Shown here piece after piece: positions 4,691-46,039 of a stretch of 57,153 bases of DNA. The stretch is from Candidatus Omnitrophota bacterium. Lineage in GTDB: Bacteria > Omnitrophota > Gorgyraeia > 2-01-FULL-45-10. Where the stretch lies: positions 69,748 to 126,900 of the forward strand of contig JAFGRN010000002.1 in the NCBI GenBank assembly GCA_016935115.1. Direction: 5' to 3'. The notes beneath the pieces are model-generated. The model was not told the DNA's origin. It saw only the letters and a list, made by a program, of their open reading frames with translations, and did no database searches. The translations under genes were made by a program, and so were the position numbers. Every line of letters begins with the position of its first letter. Position 1 is the first letter of the stretch.

Positions 4691-6088
4691 TTAGAATACG
4701 TTCTCCTTTTTCCTGCTGGACTTGCCAAAGCTCAGCCGTCTCAGGATCGCGGGTATATTGCCTCCGACCTCAATAAGCCATCTCGGATTTTTCAGCACAA
4801 AACAGGCGATATTCAAGATCGCGCCGGGCCTCATGTAGAACGCTTTCGACGCATGCTCGGCAAGGCTCTCTATGCGTTCATCGGATAATTCGCATATTCT
4901 CTTGTCCCTGTATCTGCCTTCCAGTTCGGATCCACGCAGAATAGAAAGCATAAAATAATTTGCCAGCGTAGATCCGCAATTCAACGAATAGCTGATGGTT
5001 TTTTTGATAGTATCCTCGGTGTCGCCGGGCAAGCCGAATATGTAAGATACGGCCGTAACAAAACCTATCCTGTTTGCGATCTTGAGCAATCTTTTTAAAG
5101 CCTCCGGCTCCCCCGGATCACGATTGATGCCCCTAAGCACTTCCGCATGCGCCGCCTGTAAGCCAAAGGAGAGAATATCGCATCCTGCCCGCTTCATGAG
5201 CCTAAAGACCCTCTCCGTGTCGGTTCTGATGCTGAATGGATGGAATATGGCCATCCATCTTACTCTATATGGCCTCTTTATCAGTTTCTCACAGAACTCT
5301 TCGATCCAGTCATTTGTCATTCCGAATATGTCATCCTGGAACGCAATATACTTGACTCCATATTTACCGATCACTTCGTCTATTTCGGCGATTACATTAT
5401 CGACGCTGCGCCTTCTGTATTTGTTGCCCCAGGACTTATGGGAGGTGCAGAAGAAACATTTATACGCACAGCCCCTTGAGGCGATCATCGTTATGTATGG
5501 CTTTCTCATGCCGAATAAAAAGTAGTCATGGTACGCGTTTATATCGACTTTTGACCTGTCCGGGAACGGTATTGTATCGATATTCTGTATCAGTTCCTGC
5601 GGCGCCGACTTCACGACCCTGCCGTCTTTTTTGTATGAGATACCTTTTATAGTGTCTATACTTCTTGCGCCGTTATAGTAGTCTACTATATCCTGTATTG
5701 TCTTTTCACCCTCGCCATGCACCACTATGTCGCATCCGTCTTCCAGAAATGTGGAGTTCGTGAGCGTATTCGGCCCTCCCACCAGCACCGGGATTCCGAG
5801 CCTCTCCTTTATCTTCCGGCTGTAGTCCTTGACCTTATTTTCCTGCGGGTCGGAACAGTAAAATCCCACCATGTCAAATTCTTTCAACTTGCCGGATAAC
5901 CAATCGAAATCAAACGGAATGACCGATTGATCGAATATATCTGTCTTGACACCCTTCTTCTCCAGAACGGCCGATAAATACTGGAGGCCCAGTTGGGGCC
6001 TTCTCTGGACGCTGTGCACTATGCCATCCCCCAAAAGATATAATTTTTCTTCGTGTACTAGATATACAAACGCCATCTTCTTTATCAC
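4691..6088 (-). CDS. B12-binding-domain radical SAM protein
   Basis: QLGLQYLSAVL, VLVGGP, VVHGEGE in the N-terminal domain; SRGCAYKCFFC (CxxxCxxC). Confidence 0.9.
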   Translation of the reverse strand: MIKKMAFVYLVHEEKLYLLGDGIVHSVQRRPQLGLQYLSAVLEKKGVKTDIFDQSVIPFDFDWLSGKLKEFDMVGFYCSDPQENKVKDYSRKIKERLGIPVLVGGPNTLTNSTFLEDGCDIVVHGEGEKTIQDIVDYYNGARSIDTIKGISYKKDGRVVKSAPQELIQNIDTIPFPDRSKVDINAYHDYFLFGMRKPYITMIASRGCAYKCFFCTSHKSWGNKYRRRSVDNVIAEIDEVIGKYGVKYIAFQDDIFGMTNDWIEEFCEKLIKRPYRVRWMAIFHPFSIRTDTERVFRLMKRAGCDILSFGLQAAHAEVLRGINRDPGEPEALKRLLKIANRIGFVTAVSYIFGLPGDTEDTIKKTISYSLNCGSTLANYFMLSILRGSELEGRYRDKRICELSDERIESLAEHASKAFYMRPGAILNIACFVLKNPRWLIEVGGNIPAILRRLSFGKSSRKKENVF

Positions 6089-6101
6089 GGCAACCCCTCT
6101 G

Positions 6102-7211
6102 TTATAGTTTGCAGCATCTCGCGCAAGCGGGCAACAACCCTCTCTTCAGAATCCGCCTGAACTTTTTATATCTCTCCCCATTCCAGACATTCGAAAAACC
6201 GCTATCAAATACATTGCCCATCCTGCAGGAGATAGACTCACACGGATACACATCCCCGTTGGGATAGATAAATAGCCCTCTCAACGCGAAAAGGCACTTC
6301 CTCCCGGAGCTAAAGTCCGGAGAGTACCAGCTCTTCAGCTCGTCAACACTCAATTCGGGCGTAAACGCGACCCTGTTTCCGAGCTCCGAGCGCAGTTTCG
6401 TTATCTTCTCCACATATCGGTCCTCTTTGCCACGGATATCGTAGATATAGCTCATCGCCTTTACATCGCCCTCTTCGAATATCTTCTTCAGCGCGTCATT
6501 GCAGCGGGAGCGCTCCTCCGTTGAATAGAATGTAGGATGGCCGAATCTCACAAGGTCCACGCCCAGAGAGGCGCTCGCGGAGGCAATATTCTTCAGGTCG
6601 TCCAGGTTTCCCTCGCAGATCGTTGTATGCGTAACGACCTTTGTATTTCTGCGACGGTTGTCAGTAAATGCCTTTATACCCTTCACCATCTTATCGTACG
6701 CGCCATTCATCGATAGGATGGTGTCGTGGACATCCTTCGTGCCGAGCAGCGAAAATACGATGTAATCCAATTTTTCCAGCATCAGCCTTTCGGCCGTATC
6801 CTTATCGAGCAGCGTGCCGTTGGTAAATATACCGACGCTTAAGCCCCTCTTCTTTACGGCTTTCACTATATCGACTATGTCTTTTCTTACGAACGGTTCT
6901 CCTCCGAAGAGTATTATGCTCGGATGATACCCGGCCACGTCATCCAGAAACCGCTCTATCTTATCCATGGGTATGTCGGCCATATCCTTCTTATTCAGGA
7001 TCTCGCTTAAGTTGCACATGGCGCATCTTGCATTGCATCTCATGGTAACAAAGAGCGCTACATTAAGCACATTCGAACTTCGGCCGGAAGCAGACAGAAA
7101 ATCGCGGGGCAGAAGAAACAGTTCCTTCATAAGCGTTCCCAGAGAGTAGGCCTTAAATGTCCTTAAATTGCTGTACTGCCTCTTTGCCACGCCGGCCAAT
7201 TCCCGTATCAT
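6102..7211 (-). CDS. Radical SAM protein with C-terminal SPASM/Twitch domain
   Basis: CNARCAMC, FGGEPF, FTNGTLL; C-terminal C..GDVYPC..CARCC. Confidence 0.88.
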   Translation of the reverse strand: MIRELAGVAKRQYSNLRTFKAYSLGTLMKELFLLPRDFLSASGRSSNVLNVALFVTMRCNARCAMCNLSEILNKKDMADIPMDKIERFLDDVAGYHPSIILFGGEPFVRKDIVDIVKAVKKRGLSVGIFTNGTLLDKDTAERLMLEKLDYIVFSLLGTKDVHDTILSMNGAYDKMVKGIKAFTDNRRRNTKVVTHTTICEGNLDDLKNIASASASLGVDLVRFGHPTFYSTEERSRCNDALKKIFEEGDVKAMSYIYDIRGKEDRYVEKITKLRSELGNRVAFTPELSVDELKSWYSPDFSSGRKCLFALRGLFIYPNGDVYPCESISCRMGNVFDSGFSNVWNGERYKKFRRILKRGLLPACARCCKL

Positions 7212-8662
7212 GATGCCTTTCTCATGCTGACAATGGATCTGAATGCCGTAAAATAGCGCGATATATCCTCGGCCCCTCTTATGGAGAGCAATTGCCGCAT
7301 GATATATGCGGGCCTGAAATAGTAACTCCTATATGCGCCGACTATGGCGTTCTTGAGCTCTTTTTCTGTCATGCCATCCGGGATATAATGCAGCTTTGTC
7401 TCCTCGGCGTCTATGAGCGAAGTGTATTCGTTATAATCCTCGTGAAGTATCTTCCCCGCTTTTTTCGCCATCAGGTAGAGCTCGTTTCCGGGGAAGAGTA
7501 TCACGGTAAAAAAATTCACCACGTCGAGGCGCATGCGCTTCGCGAATTCTACTGTCCTCTTTATGGTCTCGAGAGTCTCCCCCGGCAATCCGAATACAAA
7601 CGTCGCCCGCACGTTCAGTCCGGCCTTCTTCGCGAGCCGTATGCCGTTCTCGTTCTGCTCGACGGTAACGCCTTTCCTGATTATATTAAGCATCCGCTGG
7701 TCGCCGGATTCAATACCATATATCACCTGCCAGCATCCCGCCCGCTTCATCTTTCTGAGTATATCGAGATTGACGGTGTTGACGCGGGTGAGGCATGTCC
7801 ATGGCACTTTCATCTTTCTCTTCAATATCTCGTCGCATATTCCTTCGACTCTCCCGATATCAAGCGTGAAAGTGTCATCCATGAACCTTATTTCTTTCGC
7901 GCCGTGAACCCTGATAACATGCTCCATTTCATCCACGACATATTTCGGCGAATGGGCCCTGAACCTGTTGCCGAACACCTTCCTGTCGCAGAAGATGCAC
8001 TGATAGGGACAGCCCCTGCTTGATATCATCAGGCCCACCGGTTTCTTTATGTAAGAAGCCGGCACCGGCCTGTACCTGTCCAGCGAAGGATAGAGATGCC
8101 TTGCCGGGAACGGCAATGAATCCAGGTCATCTATATACAGCCGTTCTTTCGTAAATGCGACAGCCCCGTCCTTTCTCAAGGCCAGCCCCTTTATGTCACT
8201 GTAATCGGTTCTGCCCGCCATCATGGCATTGACGAGCTCGAGCATAGTCTCCTCGCCTTCGCCGAGCACCCCGATGTCATACGGGCCTTCCCGCATCGTT
8301 TTCTCGGGTGCCGAACAAAGCTGAGGCCCGCCTATGACCAGAGGGACACCTGGAAACGACTTTTTTATCTCCCCGGCCATATCATTCGCAGTGTTGATAG
8401 TCAGTATCGTAGCTGTTATCCCTATCACGTCCGGAGACTCTCTGCCTATTCTGCCAATGATCTCGTCCAGGGTCTTCGGCTCCCCTATGCAATCCATGAT
8501 CTTCACTTTTATGCCGTTTTTCTCCAGCAGGGCCGCTATGTAGCCGACCCCCATGGTAGGCAGTACATTGGCTATGTCCTTCAGGCCTCCCGCCTGTTTT
8601 GATATGGATAGCGGGGGGCTGATAAACAGCACCTTAAAATCAGATCTCTTTTTCCCGTTCAT
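7208..8662 (-). CDS. B12-binding-domain radical SAM protein
   Basis: TMGVGYIAALL, VIGGP, VLGEGE; SRGCPYQCIFC, GIESGDQ. Confidence 0.92.
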   Translation of the reverse strand: MNGKKRSDFKVLFISPPLSISKQAGGLKDIANVLPTMGVGYIAALLEKNGIKVKIMDCIGEPKTLDEIIGRIGRESPDVIGITATILTINTANDMAGEIKKSFPGVPLVIGGPQLCSAPEKTMREGPYDIGVLGEGEETMLELVNAMMAGRTDYSDIKGLALRKDGAVAFTKERLYIDDLDSLPFPARHLYPSLDRYRPVPASYIKKPVGLMISSRGCPYQCIFCDRKVFGNRFRAHSPKYVVDEMEHVIRVHGAKEIRFMDDTFTLDIGRVEGICDEILKRKMKVPWTCLTRVNTVNLDILRKMKRAGCWQVIYGIESGDQRMLNIIRKGVTVEQNENGIRLAKKAGLNVRATFVFGLPGETLETIKRTVEFAKRMRLDVVNFFTVILFPGNELYLMAKKAGKILHEDYNEYTSLIDAEETKLHYIPDGMTEKELKNAIVGAYRSYYFRPAYIMRQLLSIRGAEDISRYFTAFRSIVSMRKAS

Positions 8663-8680
8663 AATAGTATCCTGGTCACC

Positions 8681-9649
8681 TCATCCGAAAAATGCGTCGC
8701 AATACCTGCATACCGGCGGATATCTCTTCTCGATATGGCTCTTTCTCAGAGAGACTGCTTTATCACCGTTAAAAATTTCCTTTAAGCTGTTCTTCTTCAG
8801 GTCCCCTATCGGCAATGTGCTGTCCATATCCACGCAGCAGGGAAATACGATCCCGTCCCACCTGATGACAGCGTTCCTCCATAATGTGCGGCAGGCCGTC
8901 TCCCTCGCTTTGTACTTGTTGCCTATGAGCGGTTCAACGTCGATATTATCTACTTTGCCCTGCCATTCCTTTTTTACCATCTCTATGTAATCATCCCCAT
9001 CCGCTATCCTCGCCACATTTATCCCTATCCGTATTCCGGAGAGCGATCTGTCCCTTCTCTCTATAAGATATTCCATATTCTCCTTCAGCGCCCCGTACGG
9101 CGTTCCCCTGTTTTTCTCATAGCGGTCACCGATGCCTTCAAGCGAAAAGATTATCTCGTCGAGGCCGTTACTGATCACGCCATCGGCTTTCTCGCGGGAT
9201 AGCAATATGCCGTTCGTGTACGTGGATACATATATATTCCTCTTTTTCGCGTACGCTATCATGTCGAGTATTTTCGGGTGAAGAAATGGCTCGCCGTACC
9301 TGCTGAGTATAATGCATGTAATCTGGGGATTGGCATCGATTATTGATTTATAAAACTCCAGATCCATGAGCCCCCTCGGCTCATTATTTCTCTGCGTGGA
9401 GCAGTGCCCGCACTTTAGGTTACAGAGATTGGTCGGCTCGATCAGTATCCCCTGTGGCAAAAATGACTTAGGTGACCGGGCATACCGAGATAACTGATTG
9501 AGTAGTTCCCCTGCAAAGGAACGGTAGGTTCCGAAATACTGCATGAGCCTTCCGGCTATCCTGTGATCCTGGCTGAACATCGCGCCGATCAAATTATAGA
9601 TCAGCAACAATGGATATTTGGCCGGCGGTATCTTTATCTTTTTTGGCAT
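8681..9649 (-). CDS. Radical SAM protein with SPASM/Twitch domain
   Basis: EPTNLCNLKCGHC, YGEPFLHP, TNGILL; C-terminal C..DGIVFPCC..VCRYC. Confidence 0.88.
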   Translation of the reverse strand: MPKKIKIPPAKYPLLLIYNLIGAMFSQDHRIAGRLMQYFGTYRSFAGELLNQLSRYARSPKSFLPQGILIEPTNLCNLKCGHCSTQRNNEPRGLMDLEFYKSIIDANPQITCIILSRYGEPFLHPKILDMIAYAKKRNIYVSTYTNGILLSREKADGVISNGLDEIIFSLEGIGDRYEKNRGTPYGALKENMEYLIERRDRSLSGIRIGINVARIADGDDYIEMVKKEWQGKVDNIDVEPLIGNKYKARETACRTLWRNAVIRWDGIVFPCCVDMDSTLPIGDLKKNSLKEIFNGDKAVSLRKSHIEKRYPPVCRYCDAFFG

Positions 9650-10491
9650 ATGAACGTCACCTCCAGCGGCTTCCCCGCCACATCCCCTATTCCGGAAAGC
9701 GCGCCGAATACCATCTTGCTTAAGAAGCCCCCCGGAAAGAATGTCGCTGGATATTTTGAAGGCTCTATATTCCTGACCCGCATACCGAGCGATTCTATGG
9801 CGCTCTTCAGGGTCTTCTTCGAGAAGAAGGTGGAATGATGGATCGGGTGGCCTTTTGCAACCGGGCCCCTGATCAACCCGAAAGAAAATTTGTACAGGTA
9901 TTTCGATATCTCGTAGATAAGGCTGTCCTCCATGGTAGTCAGGACAAACAGATATCCGCCGGGTTTCAATAAAGATGCCGCGTCATTCAGAAAAGTCACA
10001 GGGTCCTCCGAATGGTCGATTACGTCCCACAGCGTGACCACATCGAACTTCTCATTACCGAATTTTGTCTTATCAAACTCCCCGCTAACAACGTCCAACC
10101 CGTGCTTATCCCTGGCATACCCGGCGGCAAATTCTGAAATTTCTGATCCACGCGCATTCCAGCCCCTGCCCCTGGCTATATTTAAGAATGTCCCTATGGC
10201 ACATCCTATGTCTAGCAGCGTACCTTTTAACGGAACATATGCCTGGACAGTATCCATCCTTGCATTGAATAACTCCTCTTTCTCTCTGGGATTGTTAAAG
10301 AAGTAGCCGGCCTGCTCATCCGTAAAGTACCTTTCGGAATATAGATCTTTCGAGGAGTCGGCTGTTAGAAAAACATCCCTGAATATCAGGCCGCAGGGAC
10401 GGCATCGCACAATATTAAATTCGTCCAGCCTGAAGAGGATCTCCCACTCTTTCTTCCTGCACAGCGGGCATTCGGTCTTCGGGCTATGCAT
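9634..10491 (-). CDS. Class I SAM-dependent methyltransferase with N-terminal Zn-ribbon
   Basis: CPLC..CRPC, LLDIGCAIGTFL, FDVVTLWDVIDH. Start MHSPK at 10491 with AAGGAG (track 10539). Confidence 0.88.
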   Translation of the reverse strand: MHSPKTECPLCRKKEWEILFRLDEFNIVRCRPCGLIFRDVFLTADSSKDLYSERYFTDEQAGYFFNNPREKEELFNARMDTVQAYVPLKGTLLDIGCAIGTFLNIARGRGWNARGSEISEFAAGYARDKHGLDVVSGEFDKTKFGNEKFDVVTLWDVIDHSEDPVTFLNDAASLLKPGGYLFVLTTMEDSLIYEISKYLYKFSFGLIRGPVAKGHPIHHSTFFSKKTLKSAIESLGMRVRNIEPSKYPATFFPGGFLSKMVFGALSGIGDVAGKPLEVTFICQKR

Positions 10492-11443
10492 TGTAACGCT
10501 CCTTTTCTTTGGTGCAACCGAATGCGTGGCGCACAACATAAGATGGGGTCTGATTATTCGTCATGAAGAGCCTTCCCACATATTCCCCTATCAAACCCAG
10601 CATGATCAGCTGTACACCGGCAAAGACGAGGATAGAAGTCAATATAGCGGTTACGCCTATGGGTGTATCCGGGTTCAATATTTTGTCAATGATAAAGAAT
10701 ATTGTCAGCAATGCTCCCAATATCGAAAAAAGGGCCCCGAGGATCGTGCTCATCCTGAGCGGATATACGGAAAAATTAACAAACATGTTCGTCCATAATC
10801 TCAGTAACTTTCTCAAGGTATATCCCGATTTTCCCTTATGCCTCTTCTCGTGCCTGACAAGCACCTCGCCGATGTTCCTGGTGCTTCGCCATATGAGGCC
10901 GTCTATATAAGGGAATGGCCCGTTATACTTTACGACCTCCGATACGATAAATCTGCTCATGCACTTGAAACTGGAGAGATACAGGTCCCTCGGCTTGTTC
11001 AGTAGAAAGCTGGCCACCAGGTTATTAAATCCCGATCCGAGGTTCCTGAACAGGGAATGTTCTTTCTTTGCGTAATAACCGTAAACAACATCAAATTTCC
11101 CGCTTACCGCCTTCTTGACCAGGGTCTCTATCTCCTCGGGAGGGTTCTGGAAATCATCGTCCACTATTACCGCGTAGTCTCCTGTCGTATGAGCCAATCC
11201 CGCCATCACCGCATTATGTTCTCCAAAGTTTTTCGAGAGACAGATATACTTGACGATCGCGCCGTATCTCTTGAACAGGGACAGGCACATTTCGTGGCTA
11301 TTGTCCGTGCTTCCGTCATTGACAAGCACTATCTCGAGATCGTAAGGCTTAAGGCTCGAGACCAGTTTTTCCGCCAACTGCACGATAGTCCCGGCGCCCT
11401 GAAATACCGGGATAACAACACTGATCTTCATATTCGCCCCCAT
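10484..11443 (-). CDS. GT2 glycosyltransferase, ArnC/GtrB-like polyprenyl-phosphate glycosyltransferase
   Basis: SVVIPV, VNDGSTD, SKNFGEHNAVMAG, DDDFQNPPE, two C-terminal TM helices, LGLIGEYVGR. Confidence 0.88.
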   Translation of the reverse strand: MGANMKISVVIPVFQGAGTIVQLAEKLVSSLKPYDLEIVLVNDGSTDNSHEMCLSLFKRYGAIVKYICLSKNFGEHNAVMAGLAHTTGDYAVIVDDDFQNPPEEIETLVKKAVSGKFDVVYGYYAKKEHSLFRNLGSGFNNLVASFLLNKPRDLYLSSFKCMSRFIVSEVVKYNGPFPYIDGLIWRSTRNIGEVLVRHEKRHKGKSGYTLRKLLRLWTNMFVNFSVYPLRMSTILGALFSILGALLTIFFIIDKILNPDTPIGVTAILTSILVFAGVQLIMLGLIGEYVGRLFMTNNQTPSYVVRHAFGCTKEKERYNA

Positions 11444-11444
11444 C

Positions 11445-15621: not shown

Positions 15622-15669
15622 AACCGATTATCCTTCATCTATCAGGGGTAGCGACGGAACTTGCGCCAG

Positions 15670-16254
15670 CTATTTTCTGCAAATAAAACAGAACTCCGCT
15701 TCCTCAAATCCTCCGACGAGAAAGCACCATAGCCTTGAGCACAGGAAAGGCGAAAGATTGGCAAAAAGATCCGCACAATTCCCGAAAACGACTCCGAAGT
15801 AATAGGCAAATAATGGCAGGGTCTTCTTCTTAAGGTACGGCTGGGCAAACCACCGCAGCCGCACTCTATCGCATATAAACTCTACACCGCAATAACCGCC
15901 CTGGAAGGACGGATTAAAATAATACGGAAATGACACATCAAAGCCGCGTTTGTGTTCCGGATGAGTAAACCCCCTGCTGAAATGGGGCACCCTTACCAAT
16001 ACCCTCCCTCCGGCCCTCGATATCCTGTGCAACTCCTTCATCGCCCGGAACGGGTCCGAAAGATGCTCGAGGACATGGTCGGCTTCTATAAGTTCGAAAG
16101 AATTATCCGCAAAGGGATATGGCATGCTGTTTAAATCGTGAACTACATCAGGCTCCAGCTGGCCGTGAACATCCAAATTAACATAGCCTTCCTTCTTAAA
16201 TCTACCGCAGCCAAGATTAAGTTTTTTTAAGCCCTTTAACTCTCTATTTTGCAT
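15670..16254 (-). CDS. Small class I methyltransferase-domain protein
   Basis: KLNLGCG, YVNLD, DVVHDL, HVLEHL, VPH. Confidence 0.85.
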   Translation of the reverse strand: MQNRELKGLKKLNLGCGRFKKEGYVNLDVHGQLEPDVVHDLNSMPYPFADNSFELIEADHVLEHLSDPFRAMKELHRISRAGGRVLVRVPHFSRGFTHPEHKRGFDVSFPYYFNPSFQGGYCGVEFICDRVRLRWFAQPYLKKKTLPLFAYYFGVVFGNCADLFANLSPFLCSRLWCFLVGGFEEAEFCFICRK

Positions 16255-18871: not shown

Positions 18872-18885
18872 GACAGATGCTTCCT

Positions 18886-36723: not shown

Positions 36724-36792
36724 ACACTTTTCCTTTAGCATGTTATATTGATATATATCTTAATATATTGCGATTTGGCACGTTAAGTAGTG

Positions 36793-36821
36793 ATTTTACC
36801 GTGCCTTTGGCAGATTGTCAA
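36793..36821 (-). promoter_or_regulatory. Sigma70-like internal promoter P2
   Basis: Minus strand TTGACA-N17-TAAAAT in the intergenic gap 36724-36839. Confidence 0.8.
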
Positions 36822-36839
36822 CGAATTAGCATTTTCAGG

Positions 36840-37748: not shown

Positions 37749-37751
37749 CTA

Positions 37752-39140
37752 TCAGCTCTTCTTTTTGTATGAATATGCCCCGAACAGGAGATTATGCCCT
37801 ATCTTGAATTCATTTATCAAGACGGAAAGAGACCTTATCTTCGAGAGCCTGTTCATTATATATGAAGGCCTTACATAAAATCTGCGCGTTGCAAGCGATG
37901 CCAGCTTTATCGCCTTTTCTCTCGGCATGAAACCCATGGCATCACTGTTATAGCCTATGTCCGGATCCTCTTTAGTGCGAAGCCCTTCCCCGTCCGGCGA
38001 GCGCAGGGCGCTTCCCATCCTCGGGACGGCTATGTTAAATGACGCGTAATCGAGCGGCAGGGTTCTTGCGAATTCTATAGTTTTCATGACCTCTTTCTCC
38101 CCTTCGCCCGGAAGCCCTATAATAAAAGTCCCGACGGTGCTTATATTCATGCCGGAACATAATTTCAATGTCCGGATAACGATATCGTCTTTTATACCCT
38201 TGCCGTATTTATGCCTCAATTCATAATCCCCGGACTCTATCCCGAAGATGACTGTGTGGCACCCTGATTCTTTCATTGCCGCGAGTAATTTTTCGGAAAC
38301 AATATCCATCCTCGTGAAACATGACCATGTCAGCCGCTTCTTTTTCAGATGATCCATTATAAGCATGGTCCTCTCTTTATCCACACCGAATGTCTGGTCC
38401 CTGAAATGTATCTCCCTGGCTCCCAGGCCGTATAACAGATCTATCTCATCTATCACCTCATCCGATTCTCTCACCCTCCAGCCGAGCGTGCCTATCGAAC
38501 AGTAAGAACATTTGAACGGGCATCCGTAATCCGTCAATATTGTCCCGACGGGCGCATTGAGGGCAAATGGAAATTTATAAGCCTTGAGCCGGAAAATTTC
38601 CCACTTCGGCACGCCTATCCTGATATTGCCGGATTCTTTCTTCAGTTCCCCGCAGGCGGATTCCGCTCCGGAACGGAATACCCATTCCGGCGGATACTGC
38701 CCAGCGGGCCGGCCGTTCCTCAATATGCCCATAATATCCGTGCAAGCGAAAGACCTCAGGACGGCGTCAATATGCGGTGATTTTGAAAATATTATCCCGG
38801 GCGCGACCCGGCATATATCCCCCATGGCTATTATCACGGCATTAGTACGCTCCTTCATCTTTTTGATAAGGGCGAGGTCTTCTTCGAGAGAAAGCCCTGA
38901 TACAAGACAGAAGATGTGGGTCGGAGCAAACTCAGCTGCCTCATCCAGAAGTTTCTCAGGCGAAAGGCCTTCCGCTATCGCGTCGAAAACCTTAACCGGA
39001 CCCTCAAGCGACGCGCTGAGCCAGACAAAGTCTATCGGCGGATAATGGTAATTTGCTTTGGCTATCAGGGAGGTATAGTAGTCGCGTATGTATTCGTATG
39101 TGCCGGGAGGATTAACCAGTGCAATCTTCGTATTATTCAT
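37752..39140 (-). CDS. B12-binding-like-domain radical SAM protein (divergent N-terminus)
   Basis: DYGCPFKCSYC, GIESGD, GLPGE. N-terminal LVNPP..PPIDF instead of PLGL. Confidence 0.85.
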   Translation of the reverse strand: MNNTKIALVNPPGTYEYIRDYYTSLIAKANYHYPPIDFVWLSASLEGPVKVFDAIAEGLSPEKLLDEAAEFAPTHIFCLVSGLSLEEDLALIKKMKERTNAVIIAMGDICRVAPGIIFSKSPHIDAVLRSFACTDIMGILRNGRPAGQYPPEWVFRSGAESACGELKKESGNIRIGVPKWEIFRLKAYKFPFALNAPVGTILTDYGCPFKCSYCSIGTLGWRVRESDEVIDEIDLLYGLGAREIHFRDQTFGVDKERTMLIMDHLKKKRLTWSCFTRMDIVSEKLLAAMKESGCHTVIFGIESGDYELRHKYGKGIKDDIVIRTLKLCSGMNISTVGTFIIGLPGEGEKEVMKTIEFARTLPLDYASFNIAVPRMGSALRSPDGEGLRTKEDPDIGYNSDAMGFMPREKAIKLASLATRRFYVRPSYIMNRLSKIRSLSVLINEFKIGHNLLFGAYSYKKKS

Positions 39141-39429: not shown

Positions 39430-39433
39430 ATCA

Positions 39434-40255
39434 TTACCGGCGTAAACTTTTAAAAAACATAAATTCTGCTGTATCCCGCGGCCTGTCTAGCTGAGAATTA
39501 ACAGCCAGCCTGGCCTTTTCATCCTGTTTTGTTTTCAGATAAACATTTACGAGGTCATAATAAGCTATCCCATTATTTTCTGGCCGGAACTTCAAGGCCA
39601 ATCCCAGATATTGCTCCGCTTCTCTATATTCATGGCTCAACAGCAAAAATCTACCTCTGAGATAGGGATAATAATAAAGAAAAGGGTGATGGTATTCAAT
39701 CCAGGGATTTGAATGTAAATATTTTCTAAATCGATTAAACAATTCATCAATATCCTCGAAGCGACGGAAAGAAAGTCTATACTCCAAAGCAACCACATAC
39801 TCTTGCAGAGATTCTGGATGGTCTACTCCTTCCATGTACTCTGAAAGAATATTACGCATTTCCGATTCCGGAATGTTCAATCTCTCCCCCAATCGAAATA
39901 TAAGGGATAATGAGTCAATTGCGTGTAAATACCGCCAACAACGCAAAGGATTAACGTTTACATTTAAAGGAAATTTCTTAATCACTATATTGTCATTATA
40001 TCTTGCTTCACTTTCAAGAAGACGGATCAACATATTAATGGCATCTTTATACCGAGCCGAGGCTATATGCATGGCCGCGAGTTTATCGTAACTGTTTTGC
40101 GCAGGAATTTCCTGCGGCTTCGGTCGTCCTGTATCCATAATTTGTTTTTTATCATAACCGGGAAACTCGATAAAAAATAATTTGAAATTTTGGAAAATAA
40201 GCACAGTCCATCCTATGAGTATATATATTGCAAGTATGGGCACGAGTTTTTTCAT
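39434..40255 (-). CDS. Membrane-anchored TPR-like protein
   Basis: N-terminal hydrophobic helix; TPR-like segments (LRGRFLLLSHEYREAEQYLGLALKFRPEN; AYYDLVNVY). Confidence 0.65.
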   Translation of the reverse strand: MKKLVPILAIYILIGWTVLIFQNFKLFFIEFPGYDKKQIMDTGRPKPQEIPAQNSYDKLAAMHIASARYKDAINMLIRLLESEARYNDNIVIKKFPLNVNVNPLRCWRYLHAIDSLSLIFRLGERLNIPESEMRNILSEYMEGVDHPESLQEYVVALEYRLSFRRFEDIDELFNRFRKYLHSNPWIEYHHPFLYYYPYLRGRFLLLSHEYREAEQYLGLALKFRPENNGIAYYDLVNVYLKTKQDEKARLAVNSQLDRPRDTAEFMFFKSLRR

Positions 40256-41583
40256 TCTACCCTTTTGTTTCTAACTAGATATTTCAAAGCCAACCCATAA
40301 GTGGAGAAATAAAGCAACCAAACTCCTATAAAAATACCGCCATGCTTATTAAAATTTAAATACATATCGGCATATGCTATATGGTCATTGAAAAAATGGC
40401 TGACAAGCCTGAAAATCCTGAAAAATATACTTAGCAATGAAAATCCGTGCATAAAAACGTAAGAAAATATAAACGTAACACCAAATATTTTATCCCTATA
40501 TATCATTAGCATCCAGATATTAAAAATGATAGCCGGTAAAAGAAGAATATACCAGTACATCTCGGTTGTATGAGGCGAAACGTGAAACATTGCCAGGGAA
40601 ACCGCTGCAAGGCCAAAGAGATATCTATTCTTTTTCGTGTTTATTCTGAGCTCGATTGCCATGAAGAATAGGGCCAAAAAAAGACAAGCAGCATAATGTA
40701 TTTTAATAAGCACATCTGCGCCAAAGGAACGATGGAATACAAAGTGAATGAATGCGTTCAGTCCGGCATCCCTGGTATCATGACCATAGGCGGCATTTCT
40801 CCCAATCGACGTGATTATAGAATTAAGCAGTTCCGGATTTAGATTTTCCCTCCATAATATTACGGCACTAAGAATAAGACCTGTTATGATGGCGGCCATA
40901 ACAAGCTTAAATTGCTTTTTATACGCAAAATAAAAAAGAAAGATTACAGGCAGTACTTTTATCGTTGAGACGAATCCGAGCACAATACCCGCAGATATCG
41001 GTTTCCCCTTCAAAAACAGGTAGAATCCGAAGACAATTCCCAAAATCTCGATAAATTCAGCCGGAAAACCCTGCAATACCCCATCATAAAAAGGTGCCCA
41101 ATTAAAAATAACAACAATCAACAGTGTGGCAAATAATCCCCTGCGATCGTATAAATCGAACATGCCAAGCGATAACAATATAATGCAAATCACGCTTATA
41201 TACGTAAAAATGATAAGCGTAAAACCCAGGAAGTTTGTCATGCATAAGGGATGAAAGACGGAATAATAAAACGTCATTGATACATATGGATGATTTAAAA
41301 GTGAGCAGGATACTGTTCTCAGTGGACCGGGAAGAAAATAACCGTTAATACCACTGAAAATGTTTCTGATTCCGTCGCCCGATATAGGCATAACAAAAAG
41401 CGGTAAAAACCAGCCAGAGTATACAGAGCGGACTAGAGTAGCCATTGAAAGCAAAATCACCGAAAAAATACCTAATTTTCTGATTAGAACATTCGATTCT
41501 GTGGTCTTATCAATATATCTCACGCTCATGCCTTTACTGCGATCCTGTTTAAAATCGTTATTTACCGTTTTTTGTCGCAACAA
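40252..41583 (-). CDS. GT87 (DUF2029)-like GT-C membrane glycosyltransferase
   Basis: Multi-TM; AGIVLGFVSTIKVLP, VSPHTTEMYW-type motifs. Start may be at 41529. Confidence 0.72.
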   Translation of the reverse strand: MLRQKTVNNDFKQDRSKGMSVRYIDKTTESNVLIRKLGIFSVILLSMATLVRSVYSGWFLPLFVMPISGDGIRNIFSGINGYFLPGPLRTVSCSLLNHPYVSMTFYYSVFHPLCMTNFLGFTLIIFTYISVICIILLSLGMFDLYDRRGLFATLLIVVIFNWAPFYDGVLQGFPAEFIEILGIVFGFYLFLKGKPISAGIVLGFVSTIKVLPVIFLFYFAYKKQFKLVMAAIITGLILSAVILWRENLNPELLNSIITSIGRNAAYGHDTRDAGLNAFIHFVFHRSFGADVLIKIHYAACLFLALFFMAIELRINTKKNRYLFGLAAVSLAMFHVSPHTTEMYWYILLLPAIIFNIWMLMIYRDKIFGVTFIFSYVFMHGFSLLSIFFRIFRLVSHFFNDHIAYADMYLNFNKHGGIFIGVWLLYFSTYGLALKYLVRNKRVE

Positions 41584-42679
41584 GCGACCAAAGAGTTTTA
41601 TGCGTATTTACAAGTCGCTCAATATTAAGGTCATTCTGCTTTACCAAGCGCTTTATCTCCTGCTCGGTAAAATGATGTGATATCGGCGCGTGTATCAGAT
41701 CAAAACAGGAGAGCCAGAGAATTTTAAAAGTGTTATGTGACCAGAACATCATATGTTCAAATAGTGGAAGTCTTTGGGCGGTTTTTTTTGAAACGCGGCA
41801 CAGAGGTAAATAAAAGAGATGAATCAATAAATAAATGGCGGCGGCGGGCAATAAAGAGATAATTCTTTGAACAGACAACGGGACTTTATGTAGAAAATAT
41901 TTTAAGGGCTCTATAATCTTGGTCATAATAAAATTATTTTCACGGCTATACACACAGATACCGACGATCCCTCCCGATTTTGTGACCCTGACCAATTGCG
42001 AAAAACCCAGCTTATGGTCCAGAATGTGTTGAAGCGCATGATCGCATATCGCTATATCCGCCATTTCGTTTTTTAAAGGACTGCGGCAGATGTCGCATCT
42101 CAACAACAGCATATTCTGCCGCCATTCGGGTATTAGTTTTGGGATGGAGTAAATTTCCGCACCGATCTCATTTATGATAATTTTCGATGGTCCGACTTTC
42201 GCTATGTGAAAAACCTCCCTACCCCTGCCTCCACAGGCTACATAAACTACCTTTCCCTCAACTTTTTTATTCGTGATAGGGATAAATCTCCAAAAAACGG
42301 CACTTCCGAACAAGTCTTCGGGATCTCGATTAAAATCGTCGGAATCAAAAGTTGATACATGCTCCCACTGATATTCCCAATTCTTGCTTACGAGAAGTTG
42401 TTTTTTCTGCCCGCATTCAAGGTTTTCCGCTTTACCGCAAAAATCTGTCTTTATGCCCATTTTTTCCATGCAAAACTTTTCTCGCTTACTCAAGTAATAC
42501 GGAAGAACATTTTTACGAAAAAATACCCCAACACTGTCAATAACCGGATATTCCCTGCCGCATCTTCCACACCTTAAAATACCGTAATTTATCATATTGT
42601 TTTCGAACTCACAAAATACCGCGGCTAAATCACCGCGACACTCAATACATTCTAAAAGTCCTATATCATCTACGAGCAT
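41558..42679 (-). CDS. Methyltransferase-like protein with Trm112-like N-terminal Zn-ribbon
   Basis: CIECRG..CGRCGREYPV, DHALQH, RVTKSGG. SAM motif I is degenerate (VVYVACGGRG). Confidence 0.75.
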   Translation of the reverse strand: MLVDDIGLLECIECRGDLAAVFCEFENNMINYGILRCGRCGREYPVIDSVGVFFRKNVLPYYLSKREKFCMEKMGIKTDFCGKAENLECGQKKQLLVSKNWEYQWEHVSTFDSDDFNRDPEDLFGSAVFWRFIPITNKKVEGKVVYVACGGRGREVFHIAKVGPSKIIINEIGAEIYSIPKLIPEWRQNMLLLRCDICRSPLKNEMADIAICDHALQHILDHKLGFSQLVRVTKSGGIVGICVYSRENNFIMTKIIEPLKYFLHKVPLSVQRIISLLPAAAIYLLIHLFYLPLCRVSKKTAQRLPLFEHMMFWSHNTFKILWLSCFDLIHAPISHHFTEQEIKRLVKQNDLNIERLVNTHKTLWSLVATKNGK

Positions 42680-43560
42680 CTTAACGCCGCCCCCTTTACT
42701 CCTGGAACTATATAGTACTCCCCTATCTTTCCACCTCTGATCATCCTATTAAACAAATAAGCCAATTCTATCAAACAACGTAATAACACATTCTTTGTGA
42801 AGCGTGAGGCTGGAGTATCGCTAAAACCATATGAAACAACTTGCCATCCGTTTTTGTCCAGAAGATTGCTTATGCCAGTCCTAGAAAAATTCCAGGCATG
42901 ATGGGGAAATCCAAAACATAACTTAAGCATCCTTTTGCCCATCGACGGGAATAAACAGGTAATAAAATAAGCCGCAATGTTGAAGATATCATAGTTATTG
43001 TTGACTCTCAGGTAAATAATGCCGTCATTTTTCAGATAGGCCCTTAACCTGTTCAATAATTTAAATCCGTCGGCTAAATGCTCAAAGCTATCCCAAAAAG
43101 TAATAACATCAAAAGGCTGACCAAATGCGCTGATTTTTTCCACAGGACTGAAGATAATCCTGCTCTGAAGTCCTGGCGGAATAATCTCTCTCATCGTATC
43201 ATCTGCCTCTATGCCTGTAACATCATGACCAAGCTTAAGGCATTCCTGTAAAAATACCCCGTTTCCGCAACCTATATCTAAAATTCTCAGGGAACCGCCA
43301 GGTTTGATCGTTTCCAAAAATCTAAAAAATGATCTATACGGCGGGTAACATCCTGAGGATGTGATGCTACCGGAACTCATGTAATAGTTGGTTATACTAT
43401 TGCTAAGTCCTTCCCTGGAATCAATAAGGCTGGTGTTTTTTTCAACTCGACCGGTATATCTAGCCCATTGGAGCCCACAATTTCTGCATATCAATATAGA
43501 TCCTTCCTCGTAGCTATATTCATCGATCTTATTTTTGTCACAGCTCGGACATGGCTTCAT
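42670..43560 (-). CDS. Class I SAM-dependent methyltransferase with N-terminal Zn-ribbon
   Basis: CPSC..CRNC, ILDIGCGNG, FDVITFWDSFEH. Start MKPCP at 43560 with GGGAGG (track 43599). Confidence 0.85.
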   Translation of the reverse strand: MKPCPSCDKNKIDEYSYEEGSILICRNCGLQWARYTGRVEKNTSLIDSREGLSNSITNYYMSSGSITSSGCYPPYRSFFRFLETIKPGGSLRILDIGCGNGVFLQECLKLGHDVTGIEADDTMREIIPPGLQSRIIFSPVEKISAFGQPFDVITFWDSFEHLADGFKLLNRLRAYLKNDGIIYLRVNNNYDIFNIAAYFITCLFPSMGKRMLKLCFGFPHHAWNFSRTGISNLLDKNGWQVVSYGFSDTPASRFTKNVLLRCLIELAYLFNRMIRGGKIGEYYIVPGVKGAALRCS

Positions 43561-43582
43561 AGCAACCTCCCAATCTATGCTG

Positions 43583-45040
43583 TCAGAAAAAGGAATCAAA
43601 AAAAGCCTTTAGGATTGTCATAAAATCGGAAAGGCGAATTCGTTTCAACTGTCTCCAGAAAGCGCCTGGACGAAAATAAAAACTTCTAAGAGCTCTTTTC
43701 TGCGTCTCTTTCAAGCCGGCACCGGTTTGTTCAGGAGTTACCCAGATAGGCTCATTTTTAGTATATGAAACATAAGCGGAATACCTTAACCATACGGACG
43801 TGTCTATAGAACCATCCGTCCTGATGCCTGTATCAATTTTTCCTTTATTCTTTAAATCCTCAAATATGTAAGATCCCGGATAAGGAGTTAATATGGAAAA
43901 CTGCGCCATGTCCAGGGGTAACTTCTTGGCAAACCGGATGGTCTGCATCGAATCCACTGGAGATTCACCAGGCAAGCCTAAAATGAATAGCCCACCGACA
44001 TTGATCTTTGTATATTTCTTAACCGTTCTTATCGCGGATTCCGCTTTATCCAGCGATATACCTTTACATACGCCATCAAGCAGTTTTTGGACACCTGATT
44101 CAAGTCCAAAATTCATATCAACACAACCCGCCGACTCCATAGCGGTCACCAGTTCTTCATCAATAAAACGGATATGCGCCTCACATCCCCATTTAAAATT
44201 CAGCTTTCTACTTTTTATTTCGTCACAGATTTCAAGAATGCGCTTCTTGTTGCTTATAAATAAGGAATCCATAAAAAATATATAGCCGGCATTATATCTA
44301 CCGGCTAGGAGCTCCATCTCATTCACAGCCCTGGTAACGGGATTGAACCTTTGCCGTTTGTTATCGTGAACGACACAAAACGTGCATCTGTTGGGGCAGC
44401 CACGCGAGGTACACATATGTTTACTGACTTTTCCGTGGGGTGTCCTATATAACTTAAAATTGCTGACGGCTCCGATATCATATAGATGCTGGGGCACCAG
44501 GTCCCTGGCCGGTAACGGCAATCTCGACAGATCCTCGACTACAGCCGGCGGCGTTGTCGTTAAAAAATTTCCGTTATCGAGAAAAGAGATAGAGGGAACA
44601 TCATGTAATTTATGCCTTTTAGCAATAGAATCCAATAGTGCTAAGAAGGGGTACTCTCCTTCGCCATGGACCACGACGTCACAGCATCGGTTCCTGAGAT
44701 ACTGCTCTGCGTATACGCTCGCATGTATGTTCCCAAATATGATCGGAACATCTGGCATTTTAGTCTTGAGCTCTTTGCCAAGATTGTATAAAAAACCGCC
44801 GTTCGAGGTAAAAGAGGTAAATCCGATAACATCCGGATTTATTTGGCTTATGCGCCTTTTAAGTCCTTCGGCTGATAAACGTTCCGCGTAGGCATCTATG
44901 ACCGATACTTCATACCCCGCATTTCTGGCCACAGCTGCGACATAGAGCAGGCCAAGCGGTTCAAGATTGGAAATAAACGCCGCGCCACCACCTATAATGG
45001 CCGTTAAATCATCCGGAGGATTGATTAAAAGTACCTTCAT
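43583..45040 (-). CDS. B12-binding-domain radical SAM protein
   Basis: LINPP, EPLGLLYVAAV, GNIHAS, HGEGE; SRGCPNRCTFC, GLESG. Confidence 0.92.
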   Translation of the reverse strand: MKVLLINPPDDLTAIIGGGAAFISNLEPLGLLYVAAVARNAGYEVSVIDAYAERLSAEGLKRRISQINPDVIGFTSFTSNGGFLYNLGKELKTKMPDVPIIFGNIHASVYAEQYLRNRCCDVVVHGEGEYPFLALLDSIAKRHKLHDVPSISFLDNGNFLTTTPPAVVEDLSRLPLPARDLVPQHLYDIGAVSNFKLYRTPHGKVSKHMCTSRGCPNRCTFCVVHDNKRQRFNPVTRAVNEMELLAGRYNAGYIFFMDSLFISNKKRILEICDEIKSRKLNFKWGCEAHIRFIDEELVTAMESAGCVDMNFGLESGVQKLLDGVCKGISLDKAESAIRTVKKYTKINVGGLFILGLPGESPVDSMQTIRFAKKLPLDMAQFSILTPYPGSYIFEDLKNKGKIDTGIRTDGSIDTSVWLRYSAYVSYTKNEPIWVTPEQTGAGLKETQKRALRSFYFRPGAFWRQLKRIRLSDFMTILKAFFDSFF

Positions 45041-45049
45041 TTCGGTAAT

Positions 45050-46039
45050 TTAATTAAGTACCATGTCTATAATATATGTCTTTTTCTGCTGAATTTCATA
45101 ATAGGACCTTTTATCCATTTCGGCCAGGAGGCCTATTAAAATGGTTTGCGTGCCGAGTAATATTAACAGCATGGTCAATAACATAAGGGGGAGCAGATTT
45201 ATGCCCGGCAAACCTACTATATAACGTTCGTACAACGAAAACAGCCCGACCGCCGTTCCCAGCCCGATACTTGCTATGCCGAAACCTCCGAAGAAATGTA
45301 TCGGTTTTACAGAATAGTCGGACATGAACTTTATCACAAATAAATCTAAAATAACGCTCGGAACTCTTTTTATGCCATATTTGGATCTTCCTTTTCTTCT
45401 GGGATGGTGTTTTACGGATAATTCCGTAACCCTACCGCCTTCCATAGCGACAAGCGCAGGTATGAAACGATGCATTTCACCGTAGAGATGGATGGATTTT
45501 ATGAGTTTTGTTCTGTAGACTTTTAAAGTACAGCCATAATCATGCAGATGGACCTTTGAAAACCACGAAATCATCTTATTAGCGATATAAGACGGGATCT
45601 TTCTCATGATAAATGAATCTTTGCGATAACGTCGCCAGCCGCACACCAGGTCAAAACCCTCCTCCAGCTTCGCTGTCAAAGCCGGTATATCGCTGGCATC
45701 ATTCTGCATATCACCATCCATGGTCGCTAAAACATGCTTCGTGGCCGATTGTATTCCAGCCATCATGGCCACTGTCTGTCCGAAATTCTTGCTAAATTTT
45801 ATAACCCTCACCTTCTTATCATCACGGCTCAGTCTTTCCAGATACTCAAAACTGCCATCCGTACTGCCATCATCGACAAATATTATTTCGTACTCATCAT
45901 AAGATCTGTCCAGAACGTCTCTTATATGCCTGTAAAGCACATCTAGATTTTCTCTCTCGTTGAATATGGGTATCACCAGTGAAATATCCCTGGCGGGCAC
46001 GCTCTTGATTTCCCCGTTATCGCGTATATCAATAACCAT
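45050..46039 (-). CDS. GT2 glycosyltransferase, ArnC-like polyprenyl-phosphate glycosyltransferase
   Basis: SLVIPIFNE, VDDGSTD, KNFGQT, MDGDMQND, HDYGCTLK, YGEMHRFIP; two C-terminal TM helices. Confidence 0.9.
   Translation of the reverse strand: MVIDIRDNGEIKSVPARDISLVIPIFNERENLDVLYRHIRDVLDRSYDEYEIIFVDDGSTDGSFEYLERLSRDDKKVRVIKFSKNFGQTVAMMAGIQSATKHVLATMDGDMQNDASDIPALTAKLEEGFDLVCGWRRYRKDSFIMRKIPSYIANKMISWFSKVHLHDYGCTLKVYRTKLIKSIHLYGEMHRFIPALVAMEGGRVTELSVKHHPRRKGRSKYGIKRVPSVILDLFVIKFMSDYSVKPIHFFGGFGIASIGLGTAVGLFSLYERYIVGLPGINLLPLMLLTMLLILLGTQTILIGLLAEMDKRSYYEIQQKKTYIIDMVLN

Follow-up and report, generated by a model that had tools for sequence, protein, structure and literature searches.

A one-strand surface-glycan island of an Omnitrophota bacterium with repeated modules of predicted polyprenyl-phosphate glycosyltransferases, B12-binding radical SAM enzymes and methyltransferases

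Gene content and module layout

We analysed a stretch of 57,153 nucleotides (hereafter the window) from an uncultured Candidatus Omnitrophota bacterium with a small genome (about 1.4–1.7 Mb), corresponding to positions 69748–126900 of contig JAFGRN010000002.1 (C47 below) in a 1.40-Mb, 82%-complete assembly (GCA_016935115.1). Our subject is a set of four modules, (a) to (d), in which a family 2 glycosyltransferase (GT2) of the kind that loads sugars onto a lipid carrier is accompanied by radical S-adenosylmethionine enzymes (rSAMs), at least one of them of class B (i.e. with a B12-binding domain), and mostly by class I methyltransferases. The window contains 50 substantial open reading frames (ORFs), all on the minus strand with short or overlapping junctions, which we number along the direction of transcription from g50 (55478–56773) down to g1 (167–1147). 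A one-strand surface-glycan island extends over at least 125 kb here, and the window covers its downstream 57 kb. According to the ORF listing and the Pfam/NCBIfam scans, nucleotide-sugar genes lie at the front, including Ugd, RmlA/B/D, a second UDP-sugar dehydrogenase and several epimerases/dehydratases of the short-chain dehydrogenase/reductase (SDR) family; three DegT aminotransferases, Gmd, two GT4 glycosyltransferases, a GNAT and a Wzx/MOP flippase (g27) are found as well. The genes of main interest are four GT2s (g40, g26, g18 and g10), five candidates for GT-C enzymes (g44, g43/42, g36, g25 and g24), seven class-B-like rSAMs (g39, g34, g23, g16, g14, g7 and g5), two SPASM/twitch rSAMs (g8 and g6) and at least ten methyltransferase domains. 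Every gene named in a first-pass annotation of this DNA, made from the letters and the ORF translations, was reproduced at its position (Table 1).

Table 1. Window positions and predicted functions of the genes discussed (module letters follow the first-pass annotation; TM, transmembrane; aa, amino acids)
Gene	Module	Feature	Position	Strand	Evidence
g44		Predicted GT-C-fold glycosyltransferase	48471..50063	-	no Pfam match; structure model
g43+g42		GT-C-like gene in two overlapping frames	47318..48474	-	weak PMT_2 match on g42
g40	(a)	GT2, GtrB/ArnC-type, 329 aa, putative loader	45050..46039	-	PF00535
g39	(a)	Class-B (B12-binding) rSAM	43583..45040	-	PF02310, PF04055; CPNRCTFC at 215
g38	(a)	Zn-ribbon + class I methyltransferase ('MT23' family)	42670..43599	-	Methyltransf_23
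g37	(a)	Second methyltransferase	41558..42679	-	Trm112-like Zn ribbon, Methyltransf_11
g36	(a)	GT87-family GT-C, candidate transferase	40252..41583	-	PF09594 2e-11; eight TM segments
g35		Membrane-anchored TPR protein, in block g40–g34	39434..40255	-	TPR_19; N-terminal TM
g34		Class-B-like rSAM, last gene of block g40–g34	37752..39140	-	PF04055; CPFKCSYC
g27		Wzx/MOP-family flippase directly upstream of g26	30277..31752	-	Polysacc_synt_3; twelve TM segments
g26	(b)	Predicted polyprenyl-phosphate GT2, 289 aa, two C-terminal TM helices	29388..30257	-	PF00535
g25	(b)	PMT_2-type GT-C, conserved partner of g26	28040..29377	-	PMT_2 9e-16
g24	(b)	PMT_2-type GT-C, first gene of mobile unit g24-g23-g22	26305..28089	-	PMT_2
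g23	(b)	Class-B rSAM	24820..26301	-	PF02310 1.5e-26, PF04055
g22		GT4 glycosyltransferase of g24-g23-g22 unit	23600..24823	-	
g18	(c)	Soluble Dpm1-like GT-A fused to class I methyltransferase	18886..20313	-	PF00535 7-143, Methyltransf_11 302-395
g17	(c)	MT23-type methyltransferase	17984..18895	-	Methyltransf_23 3e-26
g16	(c)	Class-B rSAM with C-terminal hydrophobic helix	16412..17914	-	PF02310, PF04055
g15+g14		Pair heading block g15–g11	14224..16254	-	
g15		Short methyltransferase	15670..16254	-	
g14		Class-B-like rSAM	14224..15621	-	
g10	(d)	GT2, GtrB/ArnC-type, 319 aa, putative loader	10484..11443	-	PF00535
g9–g5	(d)	Putative tailoring genes	4691..10539	-	
g9	(d)	MT23 methyltransferase	9634..10539	-	
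g8	(d)	SPASM/twitch rSAM	8681..9649	-	
g7	(d)	B12-rSAM	7208..8662	-	
g6	(d)	SPASM rSAM	6102..7211	-	
g5	(d)	B12-rSAM	4691..6088	-	

The observation from which the first-pass annotation had started, that each of the four GT2s has a B12-rSAM one to three genes downstream, is confirmed. When gene order was shuffled, all four GT2s had a B12-rSAM among the next three genes with P = 0.004 for the five rSAMs with a Pfam B12-binding domain, and with P = 0.015 for all seven class-B-like rSAMs, i.e. including g34 and g14, which lie outside the modules as first described. The paralogues of different modules are just 22–32% identical, which rules out recent tandem duplication and indicates that the modules are old and recruited.

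Predicted enzymes of the modules

Three of the GT2s (g40, g26 and g10) have the two-TM architecture of GtrB and ArnC, in which an N-terminal GT-A domain precedes two C-terminal TM helices. The NCBIfam model of ArnC matches g40 over positions 5–312 of 316 and g10 over 7–311 (5e-50 for g10, and down to 8e-52 for the two), with PgfS matching g40 over its full length and g10 at 1e-43; g40 also aligns over its full length with the structures of ArnC (1e-44) and GtrB (2e-31). The top NCBIfam matches of g26 are AglJ, PpgS and a Dol-P-hexose transferase, and its alignments to the ArnC and GtrB structures are again full-length. The TM segments fall at residues 249–267 and 273–309 in g40, 225–254 and 256–275 in g26, and 228–258 and 260–290 in g10. 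None of the three reaches an equivalog cut-off (for ArnC, NF007986, 529 bits; g40 176, g10 170 and g26 63 bits), so that they are relatives of ArnC and similar enzymes rather than the same enzymes. From the strong homology we infer that g40, g26 and g10 are GtrB/ArnC-type polyprenyl-phosphate GT2s, which would transfer a sugar to polyprenyl phosphate. The fourth GT2, g18, matches the Pyrococcus Dpm synthase (PDB 5mlz, 1e-21) over residues 4–230 and has no membrane anchor, its only hydrophobic stretches falling inside the methyltransferase domain. The earlier assignment of all four as lipid-carrier-type GT2s therefore holds for the family, and the membrane architecture for g40, g26 and g10 and not for g18. 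All four carry DxD/DD motifs at about residues 88–112, and the QxxRW motif of processive GT2 synthases is absent from all four; together with the ArnC/GtrB matches and the Dpm synthase match of g18, this argues against chain-elongating enzymes.

The CxxxCxxC motif is kept in all nine rSAMs of the window. Both the B12-binding domain (PF02310) and the radical SAM core (PF04055) are found in g5, g7, g16, g23 and g39, whereas g14 and g34 have the core by Pfam and an N-terminal region with at most an NCBIfam-level alignment (in g34 the N-terminal domain is not recognised by Pfam, and the HpnJ, PhpK and AprD4 models match the core only). Six of the seven class-B rSAMs have HpnJ as their top NCBIfam model, at scores (at best 226.7 bits, for g7) below the HpnJ cut-off of 577.6 bits (TIGR03471); HpnR, ladderane and glycerol dialkyl glycerol tetraether (GDGT)-type models are also among the matches, and no hopanoid genes were found in the window by the Pfam/NCBIfam scans. 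Among solved structures, g7 matches AprD4 (2e-22), TsrM (3e-13), TokK (2e-11), CysS (2e-9) and also OxsB. Enzymes of class B mostly methylate unactivated carbons, and AprD4 is a diol-dehydratase. The class-B rSAMs of the window are predicted from their domains to bind and use cobalamin, and a supply of cobamide is plausible because the genome encodes CobS and CbiB (contig C22). In g16, a hydrophobic helix (residues 466–490) follows the radical SAM core; a hydrophobic or amphipathic stretch is found at the same position in 13 homologues, and in fusion proteins it sits between the two domains.

The methyltransferases g38, g17 and g9 are of the MT23 type, and in this family an N-terminal CxxC...CxxC is conserved in the alignment around g38; g17 is 27–30% identical to g9 and g38. 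Sequence searches of the PDB with this family returned generic class I methyltransferases only and gave no clue to the substrate. Upstream of g18, g20 is a nucleotide-sugar C-methyltransferase of TylC3 type (Methyltransf_14).

The first-pass annotation had GT-C enzymes accompanying the GT2s, which agrees with the five candidates found for four GT2s. One of these, g44, has no Pfam hit; in its family D35 is invariant, and D36 and W37 nearly so, in a 'WDDW' motif near the N-terminus. The AlphaFold2 model of g44 (65 sequences) has a pLDDT of 93 and a pTM of 0.92, and the only significant Foldseek matches in the PDB are STT3 subunits (probability 1.0, with modest TM-scores of 0.33–0.41), followed lower in the list by ArnT and ALG6; the matches are exclusively GT-C, and hhalign against the PMT_2 cluster gives 66%. 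By this model, g44 is predicted to have an STT3/ArnT-like GT-C fold. The g43/g42 candidate is split between two different frames with a 67-nt overlap and has seven TM segments in total. A sequencing frameshift is ruled out by the same split in a genome of the same genus (G163, with 59% and 51% identity), and the gene could encode a two-subunit GT-C or contain a programmed frameshift.

Conservation of the modules in other genomes

In G163, the order of orthologues is g50–g45, g43, g42, g41, g32–g27, g33, g26, g25, g15–g11, g5, g10–g6 and g24–g22, and the blocks g40–g34 and g21–g16 are absent, as is g44. Block g10–g6 is kept in order at 59–77% identity, with g5 shifted to its other side, and g24-g23-g22 has been relocated as a unit to the position after this block (g23 orthologue, 73% identical). 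The g26 and g25 orthologues (64% and 48%) are paired, with g27 near g26 (one methyltransferase gene between them) and with the orthologues of g15 and g14 (77% and 72%) directly after g26-g25. G163 also has an extra cassette consisting of a two-TM GT2, an 873-aa rSAM fusion, an MT23 methyltransferase and an 8-TM protein. The two genomes of this genus thus differ by the gain, loss and relocation of whole blocks, which the first-pass annotation had proposed to check, and the gene order is not random with respect to these sets. This description fits modules (a), (c) and (d) as units, and module (b) is to be divided into two, g26+g25 (GT2 and GT-C) and g24+g23+g22 (GT-C, rSAM and GT4).

We note that the GC content is 0.38–0.44 over block g40–g34 and about 0.5 elsewhere. 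The dip spans window positions 40000–50000 (g44 to g36), most of which (g44 and g40–g34) is absent from G163, and the low GC together with this absence fits a recent acquisition of the segment.

For synteny beyond the genus, we searched genome contigs with a profile of the g38 family using two narrow peptide patterns, which gave 10 loci (enough for synteny, and not a census). Eight of the 10 loci, whose g38 orthologues are 38–54% identical, hold a two-TM GT2 and a B12-rSAM within 10 kb, usually adjacent, and also carry a large polytopic membrane protein; they span six phyla and an archaeon (a Methanosarcinales archaeon, Desulfarculus, Magnetominusculus, Nitrospinaceae, proteobacterial metagenome-assembled genomes (MAGs) and metagenome contigs). 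Of the remaining two, one has only a PMT_2-TPR GT-C beside the methyltransferase and the other is truncated by the contig end. The pair g37+g38 is kept in three loci (L001, L007 and L009). The g39 orthogroup is tight, the best 120 among the matches listed all being at least 50% identical and about 485 aa long, and it is found in Elusimicrobia, Thermodesulfobacteriota, Bathyarchaeota, Magnetococcales, Spirochaetes, Planctomycetota and the cultured Nitratidesulfovibrio vulgaris (strains Hildenborough and DP4; UniProt Q726T7 and WP_011791559.1). Orthologues of g40 (42–46%) are found beside or near g39 orthologues in L006, L079, L080 and L081. Pairs with a g39 orthologue of 54–61% and a g40 orthologue of 42–45% occur in an Elusimicrobia contig with the two 5.4 kb apart, a Magnetococcales MAG with the order GT2 (g40-like, 43%), AsnB and rSAM, and a contig of N. 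vulgaris type, where the g39 orthologue occurs with a SPASM-like rSAM, orthologues of g38 (39%) and g15 (53%), an AsnB-like amidotransferase and a TPR-fused g40 orthologue (42%) whose C-terminal part is ArnC-like over its full length. A methyltransferase of the 'DVU_1556 family' (weak matches g9 and g18) was expected in this N. vulgaris-type locus and is not there. Directly upstream of the g39 orthologue in a Spirochaetes MAG is a protein of 986 aa with a weak PMT_2 match, and a B12-rSAM-YdjC fusion is nearby. Of 13 homologues of g16, 6 have a GT2 and 5 a 7–9-TM protein as a neighbour within 1.5 kb. Sets of GT2, rSAM and methyltransferase genes are therefore syntenic in distant genomes.

We also surveyed 250 other genomes of the phylum. 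Among the best 40 loci with a g26-type GT2, a B12-rSAM is found within 2.5 kb in 12 and within 9 kb in 19, and all seven g26 orthologues of at least 40% identity have one within 2.5 kb. Co-divergence of the two enzymes, another check proposed in the first-pass annotation, was observed in 17 GT2-rSAM pairs separated by 500 bp or less (Mantel r = 0.57, P < 1e-4), and the signal comes from the closer pairs, since the Spearman coefficient is only 0.17. In 15 pairs the two genes are immediately adjacent or overlapping (0–50 bp apart). One clade joins an archaeon, Desulfarculus and proteobacterial MAGs, with GT2s 50–82% and rSAMs 52–83% identical; this similar identity across domains points to horizontal transfer of the pair as a unit.

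Many of the unannotated membrane proteins next to two-TM GT2s in these relatives are remote relatives of PMT_2 (hhalign probability 80–99%, with Wzx and MBOAT controls below 3%). With Pfam, ten large membrane neighbours of the cassette gave nothing but one MBOAT, and BLAST gave no link among them. We further noticed a conserved membrane protein of 765–772 aa with about 10–14 helices and a C-terminal soluble domain in two loci (L002:1901-4198 and L008:4381-6699), for which there was no Pfam hit and no hhalign similarity to PMT_2, and for which AlphaFold2 with a two-sequence alignment gave a pLDDT of 35.

Outside the window, the assembly encodes 24 B12-rSAM-like ORFs, 16 of them on C47 with the glycan island, and all five of its two-TM GT2s are on C47. 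A fifth module lies just downstream of the window, with genes for an SDR protein, a DegT aminotransferase, a hexapeptide N-acyltransferase, a two-TM GT2, a fusion of a B12-rSAM with the deacetylase-like domain DUF2334, a methyltransferase, a B12-rSAM and an 8-TM protein; a sixth instance, on contig C1, consists of a GT2, a B12-rSAM, a 125-aa protein and a PMT_2-like 8-TM protein. The rSAM-DUF2334 fusions (866–873 aa) occur in this genome (C47:57045-59645, L083) and in G163, and the B12-rSAM-YdjC fusion lies in the Spirochaetes cassette (L082:15216-17458). YdjC is the family of the deacetylase HpnK.

Other genes of the cassettes and of the window include the following. AsnB-like glutamine amidotransferases (about 640–710 aa) recur in GT2/rSAM/methyltransferase cassettes of other phyla (L002, L079, L081 and L082) and are absent from the window; they may amidate a uronic-acid sugar. 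The 194-aa g15 is well conserved (53–77% in G163, L002, L035 and the N. vulgaris-type contig), and its orthologues, including those in L002, L035 and L079 at 53–62%, are always found beside a two-TM GT2 or a B12-rSAM, so g15 may be a core component of the cassette. A 148-aa ORF (55031–55477, below the 150-aa ORF cut-off) between RmlA (g49) and Ugd (g50) resembles RmlC in its N-terminal sequence, and with it the RmlABCD set would be complete. At the tail end of the window (167–4728) lie genes for a nucleotidyltransferase (g4), an acetolactate-synthase-type enzyme that uses thiamine diphosphate (g3), an SDR protein (g2) and an FkbM methyltransferase (g1), a set that we take to resemble the YerE-type attachment of a two-carbon branch to a keto-sugar (as in yersiniose-like branched sugars).

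Proposed function, alternative readings and known systems

We propose, with moderate confidence and from the predicted enzyme families, that the island with its several modules of GT2, rSAM, methyltransferase and GT-C genes would build, flip and transfer tailored lipid-linked sugars to the cell surface. At the cytoplasmic face, the GT2 (GtrB/ArnC/Dpm1-type) would load polyprenyl phosphate with a single sugar taken from a nucleotide sugar; the adjacent class-B rSAMs, SPASM/twitch rSAMs and class I methyltransferases would tailor the sugar handled by the GT2 of their module, most likely by C- and O-methylation and possibly also by radical rearrangement or deoxygenation; the product would be flipped, with g27 (MOP family) as the only flippase candidate; and, judging from family membership, a GT-C (g44, g43/42, g36, g25 or g24) would attach the sugar, on the outer side of the membrane, to a glycan or protein of the surface. 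Since modules are exchanged block by block, both within the genus and between phyla and domains, the island would be a multiplexed and re-assortable decoration system.

Several observations weigh against this proposal. When a B12-rSAM on either side of the GT2 is allowed in the shuffling, P rises to 0.14, so the window alone is modest, suggestive evidence and the synteny across genomes carries the weight. Annotation of the relatives depended on BLAST comparison with the proteins of the window and on a simple hydropathy scan. In the phylum, roughly half of the g26-type GT2s lack an rSAM within 9 kb, which makes the rSAM an optional accessory, and the enrichment of B12-rSAMs within 9 kb of membrane-anchored GT2s (22/44, versus 1/16 for non-anchored GT2s; Fisher P = 0.0015) is confounded, as membrane GT2s sit in glycan islands that are rSAM-rich anyway. 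One g39 orthologue (L080) lies among housekeeping genes. Under a loose criterion, large membrane proteins accompany these GT2s within 3 kb (28/40) no more often than they accompany control GT2s (13/20, P = 0.46). No GtrA-type flippase was found among the window ORFs, only g27, so that the earlier description of the system as GtrABC-like is supported for its GT2 and GT-C parts but not for a GtrA. The same genome also has B12-rSAMs in operons for nonulosonic-acid and heptose nucleotide sugars that lie far from any GT2, and g14 and g34 adjoin SDR, DegT and methyltransferase genes rather than a GT2. Given these placements, some rSAMs probably act on nucleotide sugars, and g14/g15 and g34 look like parts of nucleotide-sugar sub-pathways.

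The either-side permutation and the abundance of B12-rSAM-like ORFs (24 in a 1.4-Mb genome) are what one would expect if the adjacency were chance crowding in an rSAM- and methyltransferase-rich island with no functional unit behind it. Such crowding would leave unexplained the synteny across phyla and domains, the co-divergence, the insertion and deletion of whole blocks and the result of the downstream-only permutation (P = 0.004–0.015), and we regard it as highly improbable. A second alternative is that the sets make end-product glycolipids, as HpnI, HpnK and HpnJ do for the cyclitol-ether hopanoid, or that the rSAM modifies the lipid, with the GT-Cs unrelated. In its favour, most of the rSAMs have HpnJ as their highest-scoring model, lipids are the substrates of many class-B rSAMs (with models of HpnR, ladderane and GDGT type among the matches), and the adjacency of GT-Cs is not statistically specific, as given above. 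However, all scores are far under the HpnJ cut-off (at most 227 versus 577.6 bits), the GT2s resemble ArnC and GtrB along their entire length, the glycan island has five GT-Cs with g26+g25 paired in G163, and a large polytopic protein is present in nearly all cross-phylum cassettes, in several cases with detectable similarity to PMT_2; we consider glycolipid end products improbable.

More serious is the question of the stage at which tailoring takes place. The rSAMs and methyltransferases might tailor nucleotide sugars in the cytoplasm, with the GT2 loading the finished sugar and the clustering reflecting a shared pathway. Known sugar-modifying rSAMs and C-methyltransferases (GenK, TylC3 and AprD4) use soluble substrates, AprD4 is the closest solved relative of g7, many B12-rSAMs of this genome are in nucleotide-sugar operons without a GT2, g15-g14 travel with SDR, DegT and methyltransferase genes, and the nucleotide-sugar C-methyltransferase g20 lies upstream of g18. 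Against this, an N-acyltransferase before the GT2 and rSAM-deacetylase fusions after it would amount to a futile cycle if they worked on nucleotide sugars, a membrane helix is present in the g16 clade, the nucleotide-sugar enzymes of the window have no homologues within reach of the minimal cassettes (L002, L004, L005 and L008), and rSAM and GT2 genes are 0–50 bp apart or overlapping in 15 pairs. Tailoring of nucleotide sugars throughout therefore appears rather unlikely to us, and we give a little better than even chances to the GT2-adjacent rSAMs and methyltransferases acting at the lipid stage on predicted lipid-linked substrates. Four points favour the lipid stage: N-acylation before the GT2 with a deacetylase-like domain after it follows the logic of ArnA, ArnC and ArnD; the B12-rSAM-YdjC fusion mirrors HpnK/HpnJ, with HpnJ as the top model, though far below its cut-off; the hydrophobic helix is conserved in the g16 clade; and the minimal cassettes of other phyla stand without nucleotide-sugar enzymes nearby.

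We hold a bolder form of the lipid-stage reading only tentatively, at somewhat less than even chances, namely that cobalamin rSAMs carry out radical chemistry directly on polyprenyl-phosphate-monosaccharides at the cytoplasmic side of the membrane, which would give donors without a nucleotide-sugar counterpart, made by a mobile cross-domain module of which four to five are stacked here for a combinatorially variable surface. By analogy with characterised enzymes, candidate reactions on the lipid-linked sugar are C-methylation, an iterative CysS-like extension of an O-methyl group that the partner methyltransferase would install, and an HpnJ-like skeletal rearrangement after deacetylation.

Three-component systems (GT2, flippase and GT-C) decorate O antigens, teichoic acids, arabinan and glycoproteins outside the membrane, and to our knowledge the donors described for them carry ordinary sugars, with no change on the lipid beyond epimerisation or deformylation. 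The modules described here are similar to GtrA/GtrB/GtrC (Shigella and Salmonella), CsbB/GtcA/YfhO and a Citrobacter system in that a two-TM GT2 of the GtrB type, predicted to make a polyprenyl-phosphate-monosaccharide, is combined with a GT-C, and in being mobile and serotype-like; they differ from these systems in lacking GtrA (with only a MOP-family gene present), in including class-B and/or SPASM rSAMs and one to three methyltransferases per module, and in that four to five modules are arrayed in one transcription direction. The Citrobacter system is one of the pentofuranose systems of PMC11127046, which for Citrobacter youngae describes a polyprenyl-phosphoribose synthase, a MATE flippase and GT136, with auxiliary epimerases that diversify the incorporated sugar. 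In literature that covered few subscription journals, we found no paper in which rSAMs are combined with GtrB, ArnC, polyprenyl-phosphate or GT-C systems.

The Arn pathway (ArnB, ArnA, ArnC, ArnD, ArnE/F and ArnT), in which acylation precedes the GT2 step and deacylation follows it, provides with ArnD a precedent for modifying a lipid-linked sugar. Besides the full-length similarity of g40 and g10 to ArnC, the fifth module has an aminotransferase, an N-acyltransferase, a GT2, a deacetylase-like domain and a polytopic transferase in Arn order. Unlike in the Arn pathway, the GT2s score far from the equivalog cut-off (176/170 versus 529 bits), the domain that resembles a deacetylase is DUF2334 and forms part of a fusion protein with a B12-rSAM, methyltransferases and additional rSAMs intervene, and lipid A is not assigned as the target. 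In the hopanoid pathway, HpnI adds an amino sugar to a membrane lipid, HpnK (YdjC) frees the amine and HpnJ, a B12-rSAM, remodels the lipid-bound sugar; the top HpnJ matches and the B12-rSAM-YdjC fusion in a related cassette are points of similarity, whereas the window rSAMs are not HpnJ orthologues, the predicted lipid is polyprenyl phosphate, hopanoid genes are missing and GT-Cs are present. With the solved cobalamin rSAMs (TokK, CysS, TsrM, OxsB and AprD4), the window enzymes share the B12-binding domain and the rSAM core at a distant similarity confined to the core; the substrates of those solved enzymes are small soluble molecules or carrier-bound intermediates from antibiotic pathways rather than surface glycan precursors. 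CysS extends an O-methyl group installed by an ordinary methyltransferase, and an analogous extension is a possible explanation of the constant pairing of methyltransferase and B12-rSAM here.

What is new here is the multiplexing of four to five modules in one island, their block-wise differences within a genus, the test of co-divergence, the assignment of g44 to the GT-C fold by its structure model and the location of the cassette in a cultured, tractable host. The cassette is widespread in anaerobes and uncultured phyla, including an archaeon, and the proposal is directly testable, because the cassette is also found in the genetically tractable N. vulgaris. If the proposal is true, rSAM and methyltransferase tailoring on the lipid would add a layer of glycan chemistry (such as C-methyl, alkyl-ether, deoxy or rearranged sugars) and would provide a first function for a large uncharacterised share of the class-B rSAMs.

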